Origin: Cetorhinus maximus
Taxonomy: Eukaryota
Length of the DNA: 64,000 nucleotides
Direction: 5' to 3'
Assembly (NCBI RefSeq): GCF_964194155.1
Contig: NC_135890.1
Coordinates: 84,010,001 to 84,074,000 of the forward strand
This document shows, in pieces, positions 607 to 28,432 of the stretch (position 1 is the stretch's first letter; each line of letters starts with the position of its first letter). The notes below the pieces were generated by a model, which saw nothing but the letters and a program-made list of their open reading frames with translations, made no database searches and was not told where the DNA came from. Both the position numbers and the translations under genes were made by a program.

Positions 607-3600
607 TTTTTTGTTCATTCATGGGATGTGGGCTTTGCTGGCTGGGCCAGCATTTATTGCCCATCCCTAGTTGCCCTTGAAGGTGATGGTGAGCTACCTT
701 CTTGAACTGCTGCAGTCCATCTAGTGTAGGTATATTCACAGTGCTGTTAGGAAGGGAACTCCAGGATTTTGACCCAGTGACAGTGAAGGAACGGCGATAT
801 ATGTCCAAGTCAGGATGGTGAGTGGTTTGGAGGGGAACTTCCAGTTGGCAGTGTTCCCATCTATCTGCTGTCCTTATCCTTCGAGATGGTAGTGGTCGTG
901 GGTTTGGAAGGTACTGTCTCAGGAGCCTAGGTGAATTCCAGCAGTGCATCTTGTAGATGGGATACACACTGCTGCGACTGTGCATCGGTGGTGGAGGGAG
1001 CGAATGTTTGTGGATGTGGTGCCAATCAAGTGGGTTGCTTTGTCCTGGATGGTGTCGAGCTTCTTGAGTGTTGTGGGAGCTGCACTCATTCAGGCTGTTG
1101 GGAAGATATAATAATTCTCGTAATGTTATTGCAATTTATTGTAAAATAGAGTAATTGTGTGTGTGTGTCTTAATTGGATTAAAGGCTATGATGTAAACAT
1201 GGGGGAAGTTTAGAATATAAGGTAAAAGGACATTTGTATTTTTAAATAAACCAGATTAGATTGTTTTCAAGGGAGGGGTGAAATGTGTCACCTAACCAGG
1301 TGAAGTTTAGAAACAGTGTGTTTATTTTTCCCAAAGATTACTGGTAATATTTAGTGCAACGAGAGGCTTTTATTATCAGGAAGATAAAGCCCAAAGACAT
1401 AGTGAAACAATAGGAATTTGCATTCAAAGGGGACAATATGTATAAAGGAGCGAAGGCTGTGTGTAAGGGTAGGCATTTTGAGACCTAGCAAGTGTGAAAA
1501 GTCGTCTTCATCTATGCCTCAAGCTGCTGTCTTCATTAAGAAAACCCACTTTGAATTCTACTTGTTCAGGGTATCATGTTTCTTTGCTTAAAATCTGTGT
1601 CTTACTGTTGCCTTAATGAAAGTGTAACTGGGAGTTAGATTGATATGGGGATTTAGAAGTTATCATAATAGTAATGTGTAGATCTACGTATGTATTTAAA
1701 AATAATTTCTCAATAATAAATGTTTAATCTAGTTTTGTAAAACCTATAAGACTTTATCTTATTACTACTGAATTCAAGGCATGCATCTCGAAATTTATAC
1801 AAACTGCAAAACAAGCTGTGGCAGTTGTTTCAAGTTTCCTTTTGGGATTTGAACATTTACCATTGGCTGCGCCATAACACAGGCAAGTGGGGAGTATTCC
1901 ATCACACTCCTGACTTGCACCTTGTAGATGGTGGACAGGCTTTGGGGAGTCAGGTGGTGAGTTACTCGTCGCAGGTTTCCCAGCTTCTGACCTGCTCTTG
2001 TAGTCAGTCTTTATATGGCTAGTCCAGTTCAGTTTCTGGTCAACAATAGCCCCCCCCCCCGGATGTTGTTAGTTGGGGATTCAGTGATGGTAATGCCATT
2101 GAATGTCAAGGGGAGATGGTCTTTGCCTGGTACGATGTGGCGTGAGTGTTACTTGCCATTTGTCAGCCCAAGCCTGGATATTGTCCAGCACTTCTTGCAT
2201 TTAGACAAGAGCTGCTTCAGGATCTGAGGAGTCGCGAATAATGCTGAACATTGCAATCATCAGCGCACATCCCCACTTCCGACCGTATGATGGAAGGAAG
2301 GTCATCGATGAAGCAGCTGAGGATGGTTGGGCTGAGGACACTACATTGAAAAACTCCACTGATGCCCTGGAGCTGAGATGACTGACCTCCAACAACCACG
2401 ACCATCTTCCTTTTTGCTAGGTTTGACTCTAACCAGTCGAGAGTTTTCCCCCTGACTCCAGTTTTGCTAGGGCTCCTTTATGTTACACTTGGTCAAATGA
2501 TGCCTTGATGTCAAGGGCAGTCAATCTCACCTCACCTCTGGAGTTCAGCTCTTTTGTTCGTGCATGAACCGAGGCTGTAATAAGGTCAGGAGCTGAGTAG
2601 CCTTGGTGGAACCCAAACTGGGTGTCAGTGAGCAGGTTATTGCTAAGCAAGTGCCACTTGATAGCACTGTTGATGGCTCCTTCTGTTACTTTACTGACGA
2701 TTGAGAGTAGACTGTTGGGGCGGTAATTGGCCGTATTGGCTTTGTCCTGATTTTTGCGTACAGGACATATCTGGGCAATTTTCCACATAGCCGGGTAGAT
2801 GCCAGTGTTGTAGCTGTACTGGAACAGCTTGGCTAGGGGCATGCAAGTTCTGGAGCACAAGTCTTCAGTACTATTGCTGGAATATTGTCAGGGCCCATAG
2901 CCTTTGCATGATCCAGTGCCTTCGACCATTGCTTGATATCATGTGGAGTGAATTGAATTGGCTGAAGACTGGCATTTGTGATGCTGGGAACCTCCGGAGG
3001 AGGCCGAGATGGATCATCCACTCGGCACTTCTGGCTGAAGATTGTAGCAAATGCTTCAGCCTTATCTTTTGCACTGATGCACTGGATTCCCCCATCATTG
3101 AGGATGGGGATATTTGTGGAGCCTCCTCCACAAATTGTCCACCACCATTCATGACTGGATGCGGTAGGACTGCAGATAACTGATCCGTTATTTGTGGGAT
3201 TGCTCAGCTCTGTCTATCGCATGCTGCTTATGCTGTTTGGCATGCAAGTAGTCCTGTGTTATAGCTTCACCAGGTTGACATCACATTTTTAGGTACGCCT
3301 GGTGCTGCTCCTGGCATGCCCTCCTGCACTCTTCATCGAACCAGGGTTGATCCTTTGGCTTGATGGTAATGGTAGAGTGGGGGATATGCCAGGCTATGAT
3401 GTTACAGATTGTGTTTGAGTACAATTCTGCTGCTGCTGATGGTCCACTGCGCCTCATGGATGCCCAGTCTTGAATTGCTAGATCTGTTTGAAATCTATCT
3501 CATTTAACATGGTGGTAGCCACACAGTGGTAGTGCCACACAGCATGGAAGGTATCCTCAAGAGAAGGCAGGATTTCGTCTCCACAACGACTGTGCGGTGG

Positions 3601-4391
3601 TCACTCCTACCGATACTGTCATGGACAGATGCATCTGTGACAGGCGGGTTGGTGGAGGATGAGTATGTTTTTCCCCCTTGTTGGTTCCCTCACCACTGGC
3701 CACAGCCCCAGTCATATCCTTTGGGACTGGGCCAGGTCAGTCAGTAGTGGCACTTCTGAGCCACTTTTGGTGATCGACCTTGAAGTCCCCCACCTAGAGT
3801 ACTTTCTGTGACCTTTCCACCCTCAGTGCTTCCTCCAAGTGGTATTCAACATGGAGGAACACTGATTCATCAACTGAGGGAGGGCGGTAATTGGTAATCA
3901 GCAGGAGGTTTTCTTGCCCATGTTTGACCTGATGCCATGAGACTACTTTGGGTCCAGAGTTGATGTTGAGGACTCCTAGGGCAGCTTCCTCCTGACTGCC
4001 ACCATATGACAGGACATTGTTGTTTCTGGTGTCTCGGCCGATGCTGGTTGGTCCATCCGGTTCCATTCCTTTCTTGAAACTTTGTAGTGGTTTGATACAA
4101 CTGAGTGACCATTTCAGAGTCAACCACATTACTGTGGATCTGGAGTTGCACGTAGGCCAGACCAGGTAAGAATAGCAGATTTCCTTCCCTAAAGGTCATT
4201 TCCGAACCAGATGGGTTTTCACAACAATCGACAATGGTTTTATGGTCATCATTAGACTTTTAATTCCAGATTTTTATTGAATTCAAATCCCACCATCTGC
4301 TGTGGTGGGATTCAAGCCCTGGTCCCAAAGCATTACCCTGGATCTTTGGATTACAGGTCCAGCGACAATACCACTACACCATCACCCCCTC
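607..4391 (-). mobile_element. Near full-length HER1-type (CR1-group) LINE with tRNA-derived HE1-like head; interrupted by a solo LTR
   Basis: Minus-strand ORF remnants: endonuclease (LLITNYRPPSVDESV) and RT (AMGPDNIP, NYRPNSLLSIVSKV, QFGFHQGYSAPD, ALDIKASFDQV, MCADD). 3' tail at 607-680 matches the tail of the SINE at 43352; 4100-4391 matches its head. Confidence 0.9.
1096..1879 (+). mobile_element. Solo LTR (784 bp) with 5-bp TSD CAGGC
   Basis: Starts TGTT, ends AACA; caggc at 1091-1095 and 1880-1884; host LINE is continuous across it (compare about 61630-61670); AATAAA near 1715 suggests + orientation. Confidence 0.88.
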
Positions 4392-4479
4392 TTTGGCTGA
4401 ATGGGACATGCTGAGAGTTGGGATAAGTGCTGCAGAATTTTGGATAATATCAACTTAATTGAGGGTGGGAAATGGGACA

Positions 4480-4592
4480 CTGACAGCATCTGTGGAGAGG
4501 AAGACCGCATATGGACCTGCTGTCAGACCTGTTGAGTTTTTCCAGCAATTTTTCTTTGTTTCAGATTTCCAGCATCTGTAGTATTTTGCTTT
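4480..4592 (+). repeat. Penelope-like terminal repeat fragment
   Basis: cagacctgttgagtttttccagca...cagatttccagcatctgtagtattttgcttt is the reverse complement of the repeats at 10955 and 11820. Confidence 0.7.
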
Positions 4593-4820
4593 TATCAGCT
4601 TAGTGAATCTCTTTTGAACTGCCTCTAATGCCAGTATATCCTTTCTTAAATACGGGGACCTAAACTGCAGCCTCACCAACACCCTGTACGGTTGCAACAA
4701 GACTTCCCTATTTTTAAACTCCAACCCCCTAGCAATACAGGCCAAAATTCTATTTGCCGCCTTAATTACTTGCTGCACCTGCATGCTAACTTTTTGTGTT
4801 TTTTGTACAAGAACACCTGG
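4593..4820 (-). mobile_element. CR1 LINE fragment (RT C-terminal)
   Basis: QVQQVIKAANRILACIARGLEFKNREVLLQ...YLRKDILALEAVQKRFTKLI in ORF 4455..4916. Confidence 0.85.
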
Positions 4821-6270
4821 AACCACTTGGAGGGGAACTTCTAGCTGGTAGAGATTACAGATTTTGCAGGTGCTGTTGAAGCAGCTTTGGCAAGTTGTAG
4901 ATGATGCTGCAGCCATGGTGCATTGGTGATTGAATATTCAAGATGGTGTACCCTAGATAGTGTTGAGCTTTTTGAACATTAGTGCCACACCCATCCCAAC
5001 ATGTGGAGAATATTCCATCATATTCCTAACTTTAACTTCATAGATGGTAGAAAGATTTTGGGGGAGTCAGGAGGTGAGCCAGTCACTGCAAAATACCCGG
5101 TCTTTGATCTCTTGAAACCACAATATTTATGTGGCTGGTGTAGTTCTGGTCAATGGTGACCCTCAGGATATTGACAATGGGGAATTTGGTTATGGTAATG
5201 CTATTTAATGTCAATGAGAGTTGCTTAGACTCCCTTGTGTTGCTTGCCAGTTATGATGCATGAATGTTGATGCTATCCACTTGGGCCTGAATGTTGTCTA
5301 AGTCTTGCTGCGTGTAGACAAGGACTACTTCGTTATCTCAGGAGTTGCAAATGGAATTGAACACTCTGTAATCACCATCAAACATTCCCACTTCTGACCT
5401 TATGATGGAAGGAAGGTCATTAATGAAACAGTTGAAGTGATTGCTCCAAGGACACTACCCTAAGGAACTCATGTAATGATATCCTGGGGCTGAGTGGATT
5501 GGGCTCTAACAAGCACAGCCACCTTCCTTTGTGCTAAGTATGACTCCAGCCAAAGTTCTCAACCGTTATTCCCACTGATTTCAGTTTAATGGGCTCCCTG
5601 GAGCCATGCTTGGTCAAATGCTGCCACAATGTCAAATGCAGCTCAGCTCTGTAATTCAGTTCTTCTGTTCATGTTTGGACTAAGGCTATAATTGGTCTGG
5701 AGCCAAGCTGTCCTGGTGAATGCAAACTGAGCATCAGTGTGCATGTTATTGGTGAGTGCTATGTCGTAGAACTGATAACACCTTCTGTCACTCCGGTGAT
5801 TGAGAGTAGACTAATGAAACAGTGATTGGTGAGATTGGTTCTGGCATTTTTGTGGACAGGACAATTTTCCACTTTTGGGTAGACTTCTGTGGCTGGGCTG
5901 GACTGGCTCCCTCCACTGCGCTCATCCATTTCTTTATGGCACATGGAATAAATCATATGGACTGGCCTTTGTGATGATGTGGACCTCAGAAAGAAGCCAA
6001 AGTGGGTCATCCACTTGGCAGTACCGGCTGAAGAGAGTTGAGAATACTTGATTCATGTGGAATGGAATACTCCATTCGCGTGCTGGGATCTGCCATTGTT
6101 GAGGATGGGGATATTTGTGGAGCTGCCTCCTCCTCCTAGTTGTTTAATTGTCCACTGGCCTTCATAACTGGATGTGGCAGGTCTGCAACTCTTTAATTTG
6201 ATCCTTTGGTTGTGGAAATGCTTAGCTCTTCTATTGCATGTTGATGTTTGTTCACAAGCCACTTGGCCTG
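4821..6270 (-). mobile_element. Older, decayed HER1-type LINE copy
   Basis: Collinear similarity to 820-3250 (cccacttctgaccttatgatggaaggaaggtca; gttgaggatggggatatttgtggagc). Confidence 0.85.
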
Positions 6271-6334
6271 GATTGGATGGGTAGGTTATCAACAGAAGCT
6301 AGAATGGAAATGGCTTAAACTGTTACCACACTCT

Positions 6335-7075
6335 TTAATATTGCCGATAAAGAAAACATGCTATCTAAGCTTTTCGTCTTGCACTCGTCAGGATAGCTGA
6401 TTACCAAACTCTTAATTAGGGAACAACAGATTACAGTGCATGAGAAGAGAGTGCTGATTGGTTGGCAAGTGGACTCAGGTGGAGGCATTGCCATGGAGCA
6501 GTTAGCTACCCAGCTTTGTTCAAATTCAAAACGAGCAGGTCAGCTCTGGTCAAGGCATTGCCCTGCGGAATGAACCAGGGAATAACTGTTCCCTAAACTT
6601 TTGCTTAGACAAAAAAGCTACAAAGTGTGCACATGTTCCTCCAGTCTGCAAAGGACAGGACCCTGTGTGTGATTTCTAGCATGGGTAAGTGAACTGCACT
6701 GCGATCCTGGCTGACTATCTTAAATTGGTTTTTAGTGTAATTCTTAGCACAATCAGGATTGTTTAGCAAGTGATTTCCAATCATGGAATCACATCTAATG
6801 TTGGACACATTTGTTTTGCAAGCACACGCTGTTTGGGTGTGGTTAGAACTTTGCCTGTCGTGAGTGGTTGAAGGGACATACTGTTTGATATGATCCACAG
6901 ATCATTAGGCCTTATGGCGATTTTATACCTGGCATCACACCAACCAATCACACTTTTCTCATGCAGTATAAATTGATGTTCCCCTGTTACAGTTTGGTAA
7001 TTTCTTGCAAGCCATCCTGATGTGTTCAATATGAAAAGCTTTGATAGCACGTTTTTTTTTAGTAATACTCAAATT
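6335..7075 (-). mobile_element. Penelope-like element 3' fragment with inverted terminal repeat copy and GIY-YIG remnant
   Basis: About 140-bp inverted repeats (about 6335-6465 and 6941-7070); remnant CDSMIGNHLLNNPDCAKNYTKNQFKIVSQ...LE and WCDARY; hammerhead motif in both repeats. Confidence 0.82.
6360..6397 (-). ncRNA. Minimal type I hammerhead ribozyme motif
   Basis: Minus strand reads GCUAUC-CUGACGA-GU(GCAAG)AC-GAAA-AGCU-UA-GAUAGC: perfect 6-bp helix I, intact core, palindromic AAGCUU helix III, UUA cleavage triplet. Confidence 0.82.
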
Positions 7076-7099
7076 CTGGGCTACTAAACGACAATCTTC

Positions 7100-8945
7100 A
7101 ATCATTCTTAAATATTAGATTTGTGCCATAGGACCGGAGGATTGCAAATGCTAATTAAAAATGGGGCTAAACTTGGTAACAAACTAATCAGTCTAATGTC
7201 AGTGGTGGGGAAAAATACATTGCTGAGGACAAAATTAATTTTCGCTTGGACAAATACAAGTCAAGTACCCTTTATCCAAAACCCTGGGGGTCGACTGCGT
7301 TTCAGTTTCAGATAATTTTGGTTTTCAGATGCAGCAGTTAGGCCTAGCCTACTTGTATTGCAATGGCCGAAGCCTAGGCTAGCTACAGTCTCAAGTAAAT
7401 AAAATGGCTAGAAAAGTAAAATGTACCACTGAATGAATAATAAAGCATGCCTGTAACAAGTTCCCGCCTGTAACAAGTTCCCACCTGTGGCGCCACCTGC
7501 AAACCTTGCAGGAGAGAGTTCGTAAGGTAAACAGTGCAGACAAAAATCATGGTAAACAGTGCAGACAAACAACAAAACTTCCCACATAGAAGGTTGGGTG
7601 CGGCGAGGTTTGTGTCAGCTCGGGTTGTGTCAGCTCAGGTCACAGACTTCTGCACCAAAGACTAATGAGGTTCAAAGTGCGGTTTTTGGATGTGTTTGGT
7701 TTTTGGCTTTACGGATAAAGGATACTCGACTTGTGGAAGTAATAAGGGGCAGCCAGCATGGATTTGTACAAGGCACATTATCTTGACTGACTTCATTGAC
7801 TTACTTGAAGCAGTAGAGTGTGTTGATAAAAGTGGTATGGTAGCTACTGTTATACAATGACTTTCAAAGGACTTGATAAAACTATCTCTTTTTGAAAAAA
7901 TAGAAGCAATAAAGGGATGGTGTTAATTTGGATATGAAATTTGGCGAATGGAAGGCAGAGCATTGTGGTGAAATGTGGGCTGTGGGGTTCCCTTGGTATT
8001 GCTATTAAGAGCATTGCTTTTCTGAAATTACCTGTGTTGGTGCAGGGAATACAATTTTGTAAGTTTGCTTGCGATACAAAACTGCAAACTTAACAAATTG
8101 AGTTGGATTTCAGGAGGATATAGACTAGTGAAATGAGCAGACGCATGCCAGATATAGTTTAATGTGGATAAGTGTGCAGTGATACTGCCTCTGAATGTTG
8201 TTGTTTCTCCCAAAGAGTATAATCTAAAAATAAATGATTTGGGGGTAGGAGCAGTGTGCAGGGGGCAGTGTGGTGCAAGAGTAGAGGGATCTGGTGATGC
8301 ACATTCACAAATCTTTGAAAGTGGCATGGCAAATTAAAGCAGTTGAGAAAGTTGATGGGTTACTTGACTTCGTAAATAGGGCATTGACTACAAAAGCAAA
8401 AAGTTATGCTAAACCTTTAGTTTCTCTGGTTAGCCCTCAGTTGACGTATTTTGTCTTTCTGGACAGTTAGGAAGAATGTCAAGGCCATTAAGAGGGTATA
8501 GAGAAGCTTTGCCTGGTTGGTACAAGGGATGAGGGAATCCTGATATGTGGACTGATTAGAGAAGTTGGGGTTATTCTCCTTAGAGCAGACAGAGGTATTA
8601 AAACTAAGGGGTTTGATAAAGCAAACAGGGTGAAACTATTTTCTATGGCGAGTGGGTTGATTATTCAAAAGTCAGATATAAAACAATTCATAAATCAATT
8701 TAAGTGGAAATGAGAACTTAATGCAATGGGCTAAAATTTGGAACGCGACCTGAAAGGATGATGGCATCAGATTCTCAAAGGAACTTTCAAAAAGCAATTA
8801 GACATGTTCTTGATGAGGACTAATTTGTAGAGTTATGGAGGGAAAAATTACTACGTTGTTGGACTAAATTGGGCAGCTCTATAAAAGAACTGGTGCAGAT
8901 GTGACTAGCTGAATGGCCTCCTTCTGCACTGTAAGATTTTGTGAT
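7100..8945 (+). mobile_element. Old CR1 LINE 3' part, interrupted by a MITE
   Basis: IRGSQHGFV remnant; degenerate RT; CR1-type 3' end (gaatggcctccttctgcactgtaagattttgtgattc). Confidence 0.75.
7257..7733. mobile_element. Tigger/pogo-like MITE (Tc1/mariner superfamily)
   Basis: TIRs caagtcaagtaccctttatcc / ggataaaggatactcgacttg (19 of 21 match); TA on the left flank, TG on the right; splits a CR1 remnant. Confidence 0.78.
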
Positions 8946-11154: not shown

Positions 11155-11226
11155 GCCAGAAATGCGCGCACATCTGAGGTGGTGGCAGTCAAGAAGATGT
11201 CCTATAGTGGTAAACAAATAACAGAG
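11155..11226 (+). CDS. TAOK3: TAO kinase 3 coding exon (72 bp; ARNARTSEVVAVKKMSYSGKQITE, catalytic Lys motif)
   Basis: ttcag acceptor and gtaagg donor, phase 0/0; translation matches TAOK subdomain II (VVAxKKMSYSGKQ). Too short for the ORF track. Confidence 0.95.
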
Positions 11227-11819: not shown

Positions 11820-13670
11820 TTAGCAAAATGCTGCAGATGCTGGAAGTCTAAAATAAAAATAGAAAATGCAGGAAATATTCAGGTCAAGCAGCACCTGGAG
11901 AGAGAGAAAAAGTTAACATTTCGTGTTGATGGCATTTTGGCAGAACTGGAAGAAGTTGGGGATGGAACAGTTTTTAAGCAAGTATAGAAGCATGAAAACT
12001 TACGGAGAAGAGGAGGTCTGTGGGGTGGAGGACTGGAGTGATTGAATGATTAAAGGAATGATGGTGCAGGGCAACATGGAGTAACAATGGGTTAAATAAA
12101 GCAATGTGGATTAGTTTAGAGGAGTTGTAAATAGCAACAGCACAATGATTTTGGAAAAATCATTAGGAGCAGTGGTTATGATTTGAAGTTCTCAATAGAT
12201 GAGGAATAGCCTAATAGATGAGGTGCTGTTTCTTGAGCTCCTGTTGAACCTCATTGGAACAATGCAGCAGGCTGAAGACAGTGGGAGTGGTACAGTAAAT
12301 TAAAATGGCAAGTGAGCAGAAGCTCAGAGTCACACTTGACTGAACAGATGCGTTCAACAGTGACCCACCCAATCTGCATATAGTCACTGCCATTGTAGAG
12401 GAGACTGCATCAGGTAAAGTATGCTAAGTTGAAAGAAGTACTGATAAATTGGATGGAGTCTTTGGGGTCCTGGATGATGGGAATGGAGGAGGCGAAAGGA
12501 CAGGTTTTGTAGCTCCTGTGCTTGTGCAGGTAGGTGCTGGAGGAATGGAGGTGAATTTTGGGGGTGCTGGAAGAGTGGACCAGGTGTTTGGAAGGATCAA
12601 TTCCTTTTGAATACTAAAAGGGTCGGGGAAAGATATATTTAGTGGCATTGCACTGGTGGTGGCAGAAGTGGTAGAGGATGATCTGTTGAATGTGGAGGCT
12701 GCTGGGGTGGAAGATGAGGACAAGTGTAGGATATGGAGTGGACATGGTCAAATGTCTTGCCATCTGCAGTGGGCAAGAATTCTTGGTTGAGAGAAAAGGA
12801 AGACATTAGGAGAACTGGTATGGAATGTGGAATCGTCTAAACAGTTGCAGCAGAGATGGCGAAACTGAGTGAAAGGAATGGAGTCTTTTAGGAAGCAGGA
12901 TGAAAGGAAGTGTAATCCAACTAGCTGTGGGAGTTAATGGCTTATAACAGATATGGGTCTATGGCCTATCCAGAAATGGAAATGGAGATGGAGAAGTCGA
13001 GTAAGGGAAACGAGGAGTTGTAGATGCACCATGTGAAGGTGAGGGAGGAGTGGAAGTTTGAAGCTAAGTTGATTAAGTTTTCCAGTTTGAATTAAGAGCA
13101 GGAAGTGGCAACCAATGCAATCATCAGTATACAGGAAAGTGAGGTGAGGAACAGGACTTCAAAATAAATTTTGAACTTTATAGAAGCTTCCATAGAATAA
13201 AAGGCATGGCTAGGACCCATACAGGTTCCCATTGAGCATCTTTTTATTTGGAGGAAGTGTGTGGAGTCAAATAAGTTGTTTAATATAAGAGCAAGTTTCA
13301 GCAGACAGAGGAGAGTGTTAGTGGATGGGAACTGGTTGGGCCTCTGTTCAAAGAAGTGAGTGCCTGCAGACCATTCTGGTGGAGGCTGGAGATGCAGAGA
13401 GAGTGGATGCTCATGATGTAAGGGATTCAGAAAAGATTGGAGGAAGGGAGCAAAAATAATTGAGGTAGGAAAAAATAAATTCCATGGGGCAAGAACAGGC
13501 TGAAACAATGTGCCTGTGAGGGCAGTTTTGATGTTGGATCTTGAGAAGAAGGTAGAAGCAGGGCTGGGAACTATAAACTTGGAGTTTATAGTGTGGGGTG
13601 ATGGTTCTCCAGAGGAAATGAGGTCAGTGCTTGTCTGGGAAGCGATTGTTTGATGTTCAGTGGTGGGGTA
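11820..13670 (-). mobile_element. Decayed Penelope-like element (RT + GIY-YIG + terminal repeat)
   Basis: FFEQRPNQFPSTNTLL...HFLQIKRCSMGTCMGPSHA resembles the PLE RT motif; ELKKQHLIY is the endonuclease C-terminus; terminal repeat at 11820-11950. Confidence 0.82.
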
Positions 13671-14110
13671 AATCTTTTTCTGTAATTTTTTTCTATTCAA
13701 GTATTTACCCATTATCTTTGGAATGTTGCTATTGAATCTGCTTCCACCACCCGCTCTCAGTACATTCCAGATCACAACTTTGTGTAAATTTTTTAAAAAG
13801 TTTCCTCATATTACCTCTGGCTCTATTACTAATCAACTTAAATCTGTGTCGCCTGGTTACTGACCCGTCTGCAGTTAGAAACAGTTTCTCCTTGTTACTC
13901 TTTATCAAAACTATTCATGATTTTGTACACCTAGCAAATCTCTTCTTGACATTCACTGCTCTAAGGAAAATAAGCTTGGCTTCTCCATGCTCTCCGCATT
14001 ACTGGGGTCCCTCAACTCTGGTACTATTCAATAAATCTGCTCTTCATCCTTTCCAAAGTCTTGACATCCTCCCTGAAGTGTGCCTAGAATTGAATCAATG
14101 CTTCAGATTG
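13671..14110 (-). mobile_element. CR1 LINE 3' fragment
   Basis: Similar to 9340-9710 and 22700-22900. Confidence 0.75.
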
Positions 14111-14162
14111 TTGTCGTTTTCCCACCACTGTCCTTTGGCTGACTGGCAGATTTATCTATCTC

Positions 14163-15972
14163 CATAAGACATAGGAGCAGAAATTAGGCCATTCGGCCCT
14201 TTGAGTCTGCTTCGCCATTCAATCATGGCTGATAAGTTTCTCAACCCCATTCTCCCGCCTTCTCCCCGTAACCTTTGATCCCCTTACCAGTCAAGAATCT
14301 ATCTATCTCGATCTTAAATACACTCAATGTCCTGGCCTCCAGAGCCTTCTGTGGCAATGAATTCCATAGATTCACCACTCTCTAGCTAAAGAAGTTTCTC
14401 CTCATCTCTGTTCTAAAAGGTCTTCCCTTTACTCTGAGGCTGTGCCCTTGGGTCCTAGTCTCTCCTACTAATGGAAACATCTTCCCCACATCCACTCTAT
14501 CCAGGCCTTTCAGTATTCTGTAAGTTTCAATCAGATCCCCCCTCATCCTTCTAAACTCCATCGAGTATAGACCCAGAGTCCTCAAACGTTCCTCATATGT
14601 TAAGCCTTTCATTCCTGGGATCATTCTCGTGAACCTCCTTTGGACCCTCTCCAGGGTCAGCACATCCTTCCTGAGATATGGGGCCCAAAATTGCTCACAA
14701 TATTCTAAATGTGGTCTGACCAGAGCCTTTTAAAGCCGCAGCAGCACATCACTGCTTTTATATTCTGGTCCTCTCGAAATAAATGCCAACATTGCATTTG
14801 CCTTCCTAACTACCAATTCAACCTGCAAGTTAACCTTAAGAGAATCCTGGACTAGGACTCCTAAGTCCCTTTGCACTCCAGATTTCTGAATTCTCTCCAC
14901 ATTTAGAAAATAGTCTATGCCTCTATTCTTCCTACCAAAATGCATGACCTCACACTTCCCCACGTTGTATTCCATCTGCCACTTCTTTGCCCATTCTAAC
15001 GTGTCTAAATCCTTCCGCAGCCTCCCCGCCTCCTCAATACTACCTGTTCCTCCAACTATCTTTGTATCACCTGCAAACTTAGCCAGAATGCCCTCAGTTC
15101 CTTCATCTAGATCATTAATGTATAAAGTGAAAAGTTGTGATCCCAACACTGACCCTTGCAGAATTCCACTAGTCACCGGCCGCCATCCTGAGAAGGACCC
15201 CCTTATCCCCACTCTCTGCCTCCTGCCAGACAGCCAATCTTCTATCCATGCTAGTACCTTGCCTCTAACACCATGGGCTGTTATCTTACTGAGCAGCCTC
15301 CCTTGCGGCACCTTGTCAAAAGCCTTCTGGAAGTCCAAGTAGATAACATCCATTGGCTCTCCTTTGTCTACCCTACTCGTTACCTCCTCAAAGAATTCTA
15401 ACAGATTTGTCAGGCATGACCTCCCCTTGATGAAACCATGCTGACTTTGCCCTATTTTACCATGCACTTCCAAGTATTCTGAAATCTCATCCTTAATAAT
15501 GGACTCTAAAATCTTACCGACGACCGAGGTCAGGCTAATCGGCCTGTAATTTCCCGTCTTTTGCCTCACTCCCTTCTTAAACAGGGGGGTTACATTAGCA
15601 ATTTTCCAGTCCTCTGGGACCCTCCCTGACTCCGGTGATTCCTGAAAGATCACCACTAATGCCTTCACTATCTCTTCAGCTATCTCCTTCAGAACTCTGG
15701 GGTGTAATCCATCTGGTCCAGGTGATTTATCCACCTTCAGACCTTTCAGTTTTCCTAGCACCTTCTCCTTAGTAATGGCCACCATACTCACCTCTGCCCC
15801 CCGACTCTCTTGAATTTTGGGGATGTTACTCGTGTCTTCCTCCGTGAAGACTGACGCAAAGTACCTATTCAGTTCCTTCGCCATTTCTTTGTTCCCCATT
15901 ATTACTTCTCCAGCGTCATTTTACAGCGGCCCAATGTCCACTTTTGCCTCTCTCTTACCCTTTTATATATCT
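14163..15972 (-). mobile_element. Young 5'-truncated CR1 LINE; RT ORF2 nearly intact
   Basis: ORFs 14730..15899 and 14382..14663 are in the same frame, separated by a TAA; KSPGPDG, NYRPISLTS, QHGF, LDFQKAFDKV, QGSVLG and FAGD (normally FADD) motifs; intact 3' UTR. Confidence 0.95.
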
Positions 15973-16864
15973 AAAATCTCCCCTTTTTATGAACTGGAGT
16001 GTAACATTTGCAATCCTCTAAGCCTGTAGTACCACCTCTATATCCAAGGAGCAGTGAAAGATTGTGTCCAGCATCTCTGCAATTTACACCCTCATTCCCA
16101 TCAGGAACCTTGGATGTATCCAGATGACTGACTTTTATACTTTGAGGACTGCCAATAATTTGGGTACATCCTCATTATTTTTATCCTGATGATCTTTAGT
16201 CTGAATAAAATATCATTTATCCATATAATTAAAATACTGAAGGTCCCTGTCATAGAAATAAAATTCCATTACCTCACCTCATTATAAAATTCATGGAAAT
16301 TATTTGTTGCATTTTCAAATCTGGTTTAAAATACTTTGTTAAACGTGTTGGAAATTTATAGATTGGAACTCCAATATAAAGACTATGCTGGAGATGGTTC
16401 CTGTTTCAGTAATGGAGATGTTTTCTCTTTTCATGTTGCTGCACTTTTGAAGTGCAAGTTCAAACTCTATTTTTGAGTTCATAACAGGAAGCCATTTGGA
16501 CTTCAGCTGGAGTCATGTACTCTAATAGCTCAGTTTTTGAGATTCTAATAATAACACTCATCAAGGAGAGCTGATGCAAATAGCATATGTACATAAGAGA
16601 AAGTTAGATAAGAACATCAGGGAGAAATAAGTAGAAAGATATGCTGATGAGGTTAGATAAATAGGATGGGAGGAGGCTCATATAGAGCGTAGACTAGTTG
16701 ATCCAAATGGCCTGTTTCCAAGCTGAACACCCGATACAACTCTTAGAATTTTCTTTTTTTTTAAATATTTACCCAATTCCTTTTTAAATCTAGATTTTTG
16801 CCTTAACAATGCAATGTCTTCCATGCTCAAGTAACCCTTAATTAAGATTGCCATGTAATTTCAG

Positions 16865-25743: not shown

Positions 25744-26082
25744 TAAAATTGTTCAGCATCTTTGGGTAATGTTCCTACATAATTATCAGATCATCCAGCA
25801 TTTTTTCTCTCCTGTCTATTAGACAGCTAGTGTTGACGGCACTGCATTGTTACAATATGTCCTGTGGATCCATCTCCAGATTTCTACCTGAATGAAATAT
25901 GTCTCATTTTTCTTTCATTCTGGAACACCCAGCACTTCTTGAATTGCACTGCTATAAGGATCAGTCTTGATTCTACATATTGATGAATTTATCATAGACT
26001 AATTGGAAAGATGCTGATATTTTTAATTAACACACTATCATAACTAAATTTTATCTGCTGGCATTTGGTTTTGAATGCTGAC

Positions 26083-28432
26083 TCCAATAGGACGGTGCAT
26101 TGCTGGACCTAATTCTGGGGAATGAAGCTCGACTGGTGGCTGAGGTGGTGGTGGGCGAGCATTTTAGTGATAGTGACCACAACATGGTACAGTTTAAGTT
26201 TGTTATGGACAAAGAAATCGACAAGTTGCAAAAAAATGTTTTGGATTGCGGGAGAGTGGATTTTAGTAAAATAAGGCAGGATCTGGCCAAGGTAGACTGG
26301 GAACAGTTACTTGTGGGGAAATCTACAGAGGAACAGTGGGGGGTGTTCAAAAAGGAAAAGGAGAGGGTACAGGCTCAACATGTTCCCTCTAGGGTGATAG
26401 GAAGGAGTAACAAGCCCAGAGAACCATGGATGACCAGAGGTATTAAGGTTACGATGAGAAGGAAAAGAGGCTTTTAGCAGGTACAAGGGAAGCAAATCAG
26501 CAGAGGCATTAGTGGAGTACAGACAGTGCAGGGTGGAGCTTAAGAAAGCAATCAGGAGAGCAAAGAGGGGATATGAGAAAGCCCTGGCTGGTAAAAGAAG
26601 GGAAAATCCCAAGATATTCTATAAGTATATCAATGGGAAGAGGATAACCAGGGAAAGAGTAGGGCCCATAAGGGACCAAGGGGGCAATCTATGGGTGGGG
26701 CCAGAGGACATGGCTAGAGTGTTGAATGAATACTTCACGTCCATCTTCACCCAAGAGAATGTGGATGAAGGTATCGTACTCGGGGAGAGAGACTGCAAGG
26801 TTCTTAAGCAAATTGATATGGGGAGTGACAAGGTATTGGAGGTTTTGGCAGGCTTAAAAGTGGGCAAATCTCCAGGTCCGGATGATTTGTGTCCCAGACT
26901 GCTGAGGGAGGCAAGGGAGGAGATCGCAGGGGCTCTGACCCAAATTTTTAATTCCTTTCTGGCCACGGGGGAGGTGCCAGAGGACTGGAGAACAGCTAAT
27001 GTGGTTTGGCTATTTAAGAAGGGTTGTAGAGATAAGCCAGGGAACTAGAGGCCAGTGAGTCTCACGTCAGTGGTAGGGAAACTATTGGAGAAAGTTCTGA
27101 AGGAGAGTATCTATCTCCACATGGAGAGGCAGGGTTTGATCAGGGATAGTCAGCATGGCTTTGTCAGAGGGAGGTCATGCCTAACAAATTTGATTGAATT
27201 TTTTGAGGTGGTGACCAGATGTGTAGATGAGGGTAGTGCAGTTGATGTAGTTTATATGGATTTCAGCAAAGCCTTTGACCAGGTCCCACATCGGAGACTT
27301 ATAAAGAAGGCAAAGGCACTTTGGATACAGGGTAATTTGATAAGGTGGATTCAAAATTAGCTTAGTTGTAGGAGGCAGAGGGTGATGACAGAAGGATGCT
27401 TTAGTGACTGGAAGCCAGTGTCCAGTGGCGTACTACATTGATCTGCTGCGTCCCCTATTATTTGTCATTTATATAAATGACATTGATGACTATGTGGGGG
27501 GTAGGATTAGTAAATTTGCGAATGACACAAAGATTGGCCGGGTGGTTAACAGTGAAGTTGAGTGTATTGGGTTACAGGAAGTTATAGATGGGATGGTCAA
27601 ATGGGCAGATAAGTGGCAGATGGAATTTAACCCTGAAAAGTGTGAGGTGATACACTTTGGAAGGAGTAATTTGACAAGGAAGTATTCAATGAATGGCATG
27701 ACACTAGGAAGTTCTGAGGAACAAAGGGACCTTGGCATGTGTGTCCATAGATCTCTGAAGGCAGAGGGGCATGTTAGTGGGGTGGTGAAAAAGGCATATG
27801 GGACACTTGCCTTTATCAATCGAGGCATAGATTACAAAAGGAGGGAGGTCATGTTGGAGTTGTATAGAACCTTGGTGAGGCCACAGCTGGAGTATTGTGT
27901 GCCGTTCTGGTCACCACGTTATAGGAAGGATGTGATTGCACTGGTGGGGGTGCAGAGGAGATTCAGCAGGATGTTGCCTGGGATGGAACATTTAAGTTAT
28001 AAAGAGAGGTTGGATAGACTTGGGTTGTTTTCGTTGGAGCAGAGAAGACTGAGGGGCGACCTGATCGAGGTGTACAAGATTGAGGGGCATGGACAGGGTG
28101 GATAGGGAGCAGCTGTTCCCCTTAGTTGAAGGGTCAGTCACAAGGGGGCATAAGTTCAAGGTGAGGGACAGGAGGTTTAGGGGCCATGTGAGGAAAAACT
28201 TTTTTACCCGTAGGGTGGTGACGGTCTGGAATGCACTGCCATGGGATGGTGGTGGAGGCGGGTTGCCTCACATCCTTTAAAAAGTACCTGGATGAGCACT
28301 TAGCACGTCATAACACTCAAGGCTATGGGCCAAGTGCTGGTAAATGGGGTTAGGTAGGTAGGTCTGGTGTTTCTCACATGTTGGTGCAGACTCGATGGGC
28401 CAAAGGGCCTCTTCTGCTGTGTGATTCTGAGT
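26083..28432 (+). mobile_element. Young 5'-truncated CR1 LINE, ORF2 broken by stops and frameshifts
   Basis: LDLILGNE...SDSDHNMV (endonuclease end), KSPGPDD, SQHGFVRGRSCLTNL, MDFSKAFD, FANDTK, RRLRGDLIEVYK; 3' tail ends tgtgattct. Confidence 0.95.

Follow-up and report, generated by a model that had tools for sequence, protein, structure and literature searches.

A hammerhead motif of Penelope-like type, probably inert, on the antisense strand of a TAOK3-like intron in Cetorhinus maximus

Small type I hammerhead ribozymes are found in the terminal repeats (pLTRs) of Penelope-like elements (PLEs), where their function is still an open question (PMC8557442, PMC11167929). The minimal hammerheads of metazoan PLEs (Cervera and De la Pena 2014, PMC4209133) carry a G10.1-C11.1 pair, have a palindrome where a stable helix III would stand, and occur as thousands of mostly single dispersed copies, accompanied by a second copy at 100-700 bp on the other strand; they showed no cleavage as monomers and low cleavage as dimers. 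The small PLE hammerheads of Lunse, Weinberg and Breaker (2016/2017, as given in the review PMC6765202) likewise have a reduced palindromic stem III and cleave as dimers. In PAc, a Poseidon element of Anolis (Frangieh et al. 2024, PMC11167929), the pLTR hammerhead lies at the start of the ORF, the tail measures 30-40 nt and the target is AT-rich and contains ATT; this hammerhead needed the element's protein, and it left no read ends at the cut. Of nine Xenopus retrozyme dimers, eight failed to cleave (bioRxiv 10.64898/2026.07.22.740005). A canonical EN+ PLE insertion consists of a truncated body with an inverted, 5'-truncated pLTR at its 5' end and a tail at one end (Craig et al. 2021, PMC8557442). 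Finally, Perreault et al. (2011, PMC3088659) described pseudoknotted hammerheads in which helix III is self-sufficient and stem II may be as short as 2 bp. A pseudoknot between stems I and II is predicted in about 40% of hammerheads and is required for fast cleavage; type I hammerheads that join it to a 2-bp stem II are frequent and cleave faster.

Here we analyse a hammerhead motif in a 64,000-nt stretch of the C. maximus genome, called the window below, whose features are collected in Table 1. The motif is very probably the hammerhead from the terminal repeat of a dead Penelope/Poseidon-like insertion, truncated at its 5' end and placed antisense within an intron of a TAOK3-like gene. It is likely inert, and its clean core is likely a chance survivor in a population of thousands of decaying copies.

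Table 1. Features of the insertion and its surroundings (window coordinates).
Feature	Position	Strand	Basis and remarks
Possible left target-site duplication, tentative	6332..6342	+	11 nt, AT-rich, 1 mismatch with 7106-7116
AUG (6359-6357) and short start of tail	6343..6359	-	AUG 6 nt after predicted cut; putative start codon
Type I hammerhead motif	6360..6397	-	sequence; sole match in window; 0/300 shuffles; helix I covaries between subfamilies
Site of 7-nt deletion, UCUUGC arm (complementary to loop II) gone	6398..6400	-	alignments
Decayed TATA box of pLTR, 2 of 6 letters changed	6430..6435	-	alignment with 85 copies
CCAAT box of pLTR, intact	6457..6461	-	sequence and alignments; putative function
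3' end of ORF, second half of GIY-YIG-type endonuclease	6600..6940	-	5'-truncated near 6940; frameshifting deletion
Inverted 5'-truncated pLTR copy	6940..7105	+	intact TATA box 6967-6972, arm 7003-7008, long tail
Second, broken hammerhead	7011..7048	+	sense to pre-mRNA; alignments
Possible right target-site duplication, tentative	7106..7116	+	direct repeat of 6332..6342
TAOK3-like exon closing the host intron	11155..11226	+	exon match; next exon best matches TAO3

Read on the minus strand from 6397 to 6360, the motif opens with the first strand of a 6-bp helix I (6397-6392 with 6365-6360), followed by CUGACGA at 6391-6385, a 2-bp helix II (G6384-C6376 and U6383-A6377) closed by the loop GCAAG, GAAA at 6375-6372, and the helix III palindrome AAGCUU at 6372-6367. 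Position A17 is 6366, and the cut is predicted between A6366 and G6365. All the core positions of a hammerhead are present (C3 U4 G5 A6 N7 G8 A9, G12 A13 A14, the A15.1-U16.1 pair and H17), and helices I and II close this core with comparative support from family copies. A monomer of the motif has no stable helix III, as would be expected of a dimer-type hammerhead. When both strands of the window were scanned with a descriptor, the motif was the only hammerhead match; among 300 dinucleotide shuffles there was no match with helix I of at least 6 and helix II of at least 2 bp, and there were 19 when helix I was relaxed to at least 4 bp. A chance origin is ruled out by these shuffles together with the 1,604 copies of the same core in the genome (none in a reversed control). 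A search of Rfam with 5 kb and with 131 nt around the motif matched no hammerhead family at E<=10, and short minimal hammerheads such as this one may fall outside the Rfam models. The earlier note on this DNA had thus read the strand, the helices and the cut correctly, and its assignment to a type I, pLTR-borne class with a palindromic, dimer-type helix III is supported.

The motif shares with the minimal hammerheads of PMC4209133 its type, its place in a pLTR, the G10.1-C11.1 pair, the palindrome at helix III, the dispersed single copies in the thousands and the second copy on the opposite strand, and with those of Lunse, Weinberg and Breaker the reduced palindromic stem III and dimer type. 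It departs from the former in several respects: helix II has 2 bp, against 3-8 bp in the alignment rows of the PMC4209133 supplement; the extra base between positions 9 and 10.1 and the long helix II, which are consensus traits there (with exceptions), are absent; and the palindrome of the window family measures 6 nt, unlike theirs. Furthermore, the family conserves a 5' arm whose sequence complements loop II, while the minimal hammerheads are described in PMC6155905 as devoid of tertiary contacts. The rows of the PMC4209133 supplement covered here contain no cartilaginous fish. Literature searches gave no paper with a pseudoknotted or a shark PLE hammerhead in its listing or in the passages shown; the supplements of PMC4209133 or of the bioRxiv work may list the window family, and the hammerheads of Lunse, Weinberg and Breaker may already include the pseudoknotted form.

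The insertion that carries the motif spans about 6343-7105, and homology to other copies covers about 6333-7107. On the minus strand its order is the end of a GIY-YIG-type endonuclease, a pLTR with CCAAT and TATA boxes, the hammerhead, an AUG and a short tail. This layout, with its truncated body, inverted 5'-truncated pLTR and tail, is that of a canonical EN+ insertion, and the hammerhead at the ORF start, the tail and the AT-rich target recall PAc. The start codon is placed differently: inside the ribozyme and 26 nt before the cut in PAc, 3-8 nt after it here. The left edge of the insertion is uncertain, as family matches extend to 6330-6335 as well. From its position and from PMC6765202, the TATA box would have served as promoter. 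Longer family copies contain reverse transcriptase (RT) motifs followed by the endonuclease and the pLTR, with no Zn-finger-like linker between RT and endonuclease; this fits the Penelope/Poseidon clade, an assignment drawn from that one trait. One longer open copy (L128) was placed by the Atlas with GIY-YIG/HTH_animal clusters at 0.95, family labels being present on only 12-21% of the members, and we take this as a lead only. Searches of Pfam (at threshold) and PDB with the protein pieces of the element gave no significant match. The claim that a broken GIY-YIG frame adjoins the motif is borne out by the truncation and the frameshifting deletion; the earlier note had found the motif and overlooked the 7-nt deletion, the decayed TATA box and the inverted second copy at 7011-7048. 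That second hammerhead is broken by A9 to U at 7023, two loop II changes, C11.1 to U and one helix I mismatch. Around the insertion, pieces of other LINE-like repeats with RT-like frames occupy 2800-5900 and 6050-6330, two short tandem duplications of about 19-25 nt lie at 7450-7490 and 7527-7570, and strong swings of GC skew are seen at 12000-16000 and 26000-28000. Elsewhere in the family, four copies (L215, L227, L074 and L235) have very short inverted junctions in or just upstream of the hammerhead, the twin pLTR starting inside the motif.

The host intron measures 20.7 kb, from an upstream exon that ends 9,563 nt before the window to the exon that starts at 11155. The exon after 11155..11226 has TAO3 as its best match (33 of 34 residues, E 2e-19), with TAO2 lower and no TAO1 chain among the matches listed. 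These flanking kinase exons confirm the intronic site proposed for the motif. The gene lies on the plus strand and the motif on the minus strand; being antisense to the gene, the motif is not present in the TAOK3-like pre-mRNA. The insertion is shared with a relative, whose contigs cover both of its ends at about 2.7% divergence. Across 6300-6402 the relative's contig shows five differences, two of which are placed at 6322 and 6355, outside the motif, while the remaining three, whose positions are masked by other copies, lie in 6356-6402. The chance that all three miss the 38-nt motif is 0.5%, so that the relative's orthologue probably differs from the window copy at one or more positions inside the motif, although these differences could be harmless. 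The intronic position and the common insertion would also be expected of a ribozyme domesticated to regulate TAOK3, for which the conserved intronic hammerheads of amniotes in RECK and C10orf118 provide a precedent. Hammerheads of the RECK type, however, run in the sense of the pre-mRNA and show conservation between species, whereas the window motif is antisense, the sense copy at 7011..7048 is broken, and the relative's orthologue is no more conserved around the motif than in its flanks (5/103 over 6300-6402, against 2.7% overall). We consider domestication extremely improbable.

In the 4.0-Gb genome, the flank gave 4,689 DNA candidates and the protein piece 23,199, which are candidates and not copy numbers. 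The 1,604 copies with the same core are exact matches to its 26 nt together with helices II-III, and a 35-nt pattern from helix I to the cut, which adds the helix I of the window subfamily, is found in 14 copies. For comparing core and flank divergence, copies were picked without regard to the ribozyme sequence. A first set (25 of 29 copies) gave no difference, with 16/245 core and 686/8,722 flank positions changed (p=0.55), a result overturned by two larger sets. Among copies running past the motif (85 of 98), about 61 changes were expected at the ten core positions outside CpGs and 41 were observed (P about 0.004), an observed to expected ratio of 0.67 that equals the ratio of the TATA box; in a tail-selected set (47 of 58) the non-CpG core was changed at 20/468 positions and the flank at 174/2,119 (4.3% versus 8.2%, p=0.0025). 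Sixteen paired pLTRs of single insertions showed the same lean, not significant (core 14/148, flank 107/803 differing, p=0.23). Across family copies, then, divergence of the non-CpG core is lower than that of the flanks by one third to one half.

The catalytic G12, which lies in a CpG, was changed in 29 of 84 copies of the 85-copy set and in 14 of 47 tail-selected ones, and two control CpGs did not show the corresponding CA form, lethal at G12, more often than G12 itself (20 CA to 34 TG at G12, against 12:27 and 11:47). On the element's sense strand TG exceeded CA at all three of these pLTR sites (47:11, 27:12 and 34:20), an excess that may reflect subfamily states or a strand-biased process. 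The full core was intact in 26 of the 85 flank-selected copies; 13 passed a relaxed test of the whole motif and a single one the strict test, and a 6-bp helix I was found in none of 30 core-selected copies. Pair 3 of helix I was A-U in 30 and G-C in 21 of the 85 copies, and pair 5 was C-G in 45 and U-A in 10, while helix II was invariant apart from decay. The paired substitutions by which helix I differs from one subfamily to another show that selection acted on the fold during the family's active period. Together, these data point to selection on the source elements followed by free decay, perhaps with some protection of the core after insertion, and not to selection on the window copy. The earlier note had held that a core no better kept than its flanks across copies would speak against its reading; at family level the core is better kept, with the reservations that about a third of copies have lost G12 and that the paired pLTRs show no significant difference. 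In family copies (for example L171-L200) an AUG follows the predicted cut by 3-8 nt, and in one subfamily it forms part of helix I. None of the 58 tail-selected copies, judged by eye, started at the predicted cut, which is compatible with a rate of a few percent. Two near-identical pairs of copies, L175/L176 and L197/L198, about 7 kb and 186 kb apart, are likely recent local duplications.

Just 5' of helix I, most family copies have the UCUUGC arm, the complement of the loop II sequence GCAAGA, which the 7-nt deletion has taken out of the window copy. Of 30 core-intact copies, which include two pairs of recent duplicates, 27 had an arm of at least 5 Watson-Crick pairs, against a random 14-mer background of 4.4% for at least 5 and 0.6% for at least 6 pairs; the count reflects one ancestral event, the copies not being independent. 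Among the 85 flank-selected copies, 76 retain at least 4 of 5 arm pairs and 4 have a deletion at that place; the best run in the arm region of the window copy is 3 pairs. No compensatory changes of arm and loop appeared among the 100 listed of 144 single-loop variants or in 22 double variants, which look like post-insertion decay, a process that cannot reveal covariation. The arm and its 1-3-nt spacing are constant across subfamilies while the sequences of helix I and of the spacer vary. The pairing of arm and loop II would likely form a pseudoknot of 5-6 bp bracing the family's ribozyme. Such a ribozyme would differ from those of PMC3088659 in needing a dimer, and the window copy has lost the putative brace. 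In the published pseudoknotted hammerheads, loss of the pseudoknot lowers the rate 20 to over 100-fold or abolishes cleavage, and the human C10 hammerhead deprived of its 5-bp pseudoknot is inactive at 0.5 mM Mg2+ (PMC3088659).

The same arm could be read in the opposite sense, as an off-switch that pairs with GCAAGA and blocks the fold, in which case the arm-less window copy would cut more readily than its family. A six-pair arm would indeed take A11.2 out of helix II, and a pseudoknot-free folding model places an arm-loop hairpin instead of helix I in several intact copies (helix I probability at most 0.05 in 9 of 11 intact copies). Against this stand the frequency and speed of pseudoknotted type I hammerheads with a 2-bp stem II (PMC3088659) and the constancy of arm and spacing beside a varying helix I; the window copy would, moreover, still be without transcription signals and a partner. 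The off-switch is quite improbable. We favour the bracing pseudoknot, and can suggest, as a reading a little short of probable, that the family ribozyme is a dimer-type Penelope hammerhead braced by 5-6 bp and selected while the element was jumping, so that cleavage before the AUG mattered in vivo.

What remains is whether the window copy itself could act. Its TATA box, which is intact in 65 of the 85 family copies, has two changes, and no same-strand partner was found in 164 kb (the window and the 100 kb before it), a tandem same-strand partner being present in 1 of 30 sampled 3-kb family loci. As a monomer, the fold with the A15.1-U16.1 pair is predicted at +0.5 kcal/mol against -4.4 without it, the pair and its 4-nt loop costing about 4.9; the AAGCUU duplex is predicted at only -4.3 kcal/mol. 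In the folding model helix I has a probability of 0.92 in the bare 38-mer, of 0.42-0.44 with short flanks and of at most 0.01 in all five longer contexts, although the model is a weak guide, giving at most 0.05 in most intact family copies too. When the inverted copy is included, 80% of the motif's bases are predicted to pair with it, and fold-back is predicted for transcripts of either strand that contain both repeats (z -7.9 and -11.5). In the TAOK3-like pre-mRNA the inverted repeats of 6333-7107 would give a long imperfect double-stranded stem (z -11.5), a possible substrate of A-to-I editing. One sequencing run, guessed to be RNA, held only short pieces of other copies and has no bearing on expression.

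The window copy is among the cleanest of its family, with only 14 copies matching its 35-nt pattern, and its flank is 11% diverged. From near relatives it differs inside the motif at two tolerant positions, N7 and N17; the a priori chance of this outcome is 0.4-2% for a random copy, a figure that ignores that this copy was picked from thousands for being intact. Low-level cutting could be imagined through antisense read-through RNA forming a double hammerhead in trans with family RNA via AAGCUU, perhaps with the help of a Penelope protein; the host would gain nothing from it. The motif is complete in its core positions and its helices, helix I forms in the model when the motif is taken bare, the same palindrome offers 1,604 potential partners, the CCAAT box has survived, and protein-assisted cleavage is known from the Anolis element (PMC11167929). 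The 6-bp duplex is nevertheless weak, TATA box and arm are both gone, read-through RNA would include the inverted twin, and the behaviour of human C10 without its pseudoknot is discouraging; we regard such cutting as improbable. Little is therefore left of the proposal that the motif may still be active on account of its well-preserved core, given the many copies with the same core, the antisense position, the two losses and the missing partner. With good confidence we regard 6360..6397 as a real hammerhead of a known class, self-cleaving by prediction from its sequence and likely inert where it stands.

In active ancestors, transcription would have begun just downstream of the pLTR TATA box, helix I and the 2-bp helix II would have formed, probably with the 5-6-bp pseudoknot between arm and loop II, and two ribozymes would have paired through AAGCUU, perhaps aided by the element's protein. 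The RNA would then have been cut 3-8 nt before the AUG, and cleavage there would strip the capped leader almost to the start codon. The window copy would rarely be transcribed on the right strand and would have neither partner nor brace, and in long transcripts it would pair with its inverted twin.

The locus itself is an ordinary one, the decayed end of an abundant retrotransposon, and an effect on the host gene is unlikely. It shows that a copy can fit the minimal hammerhead pattern and still not deserve to be called intact, as the upstream arm of most relatives is missing here. As a natural deletion of the putative brace, the window copy would, in contrast with an intact sibling, test the role of that brace. 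The conserved arm and the better-kept core of the family provide a cheap and testable handle on the role of Penelope hammerheads.
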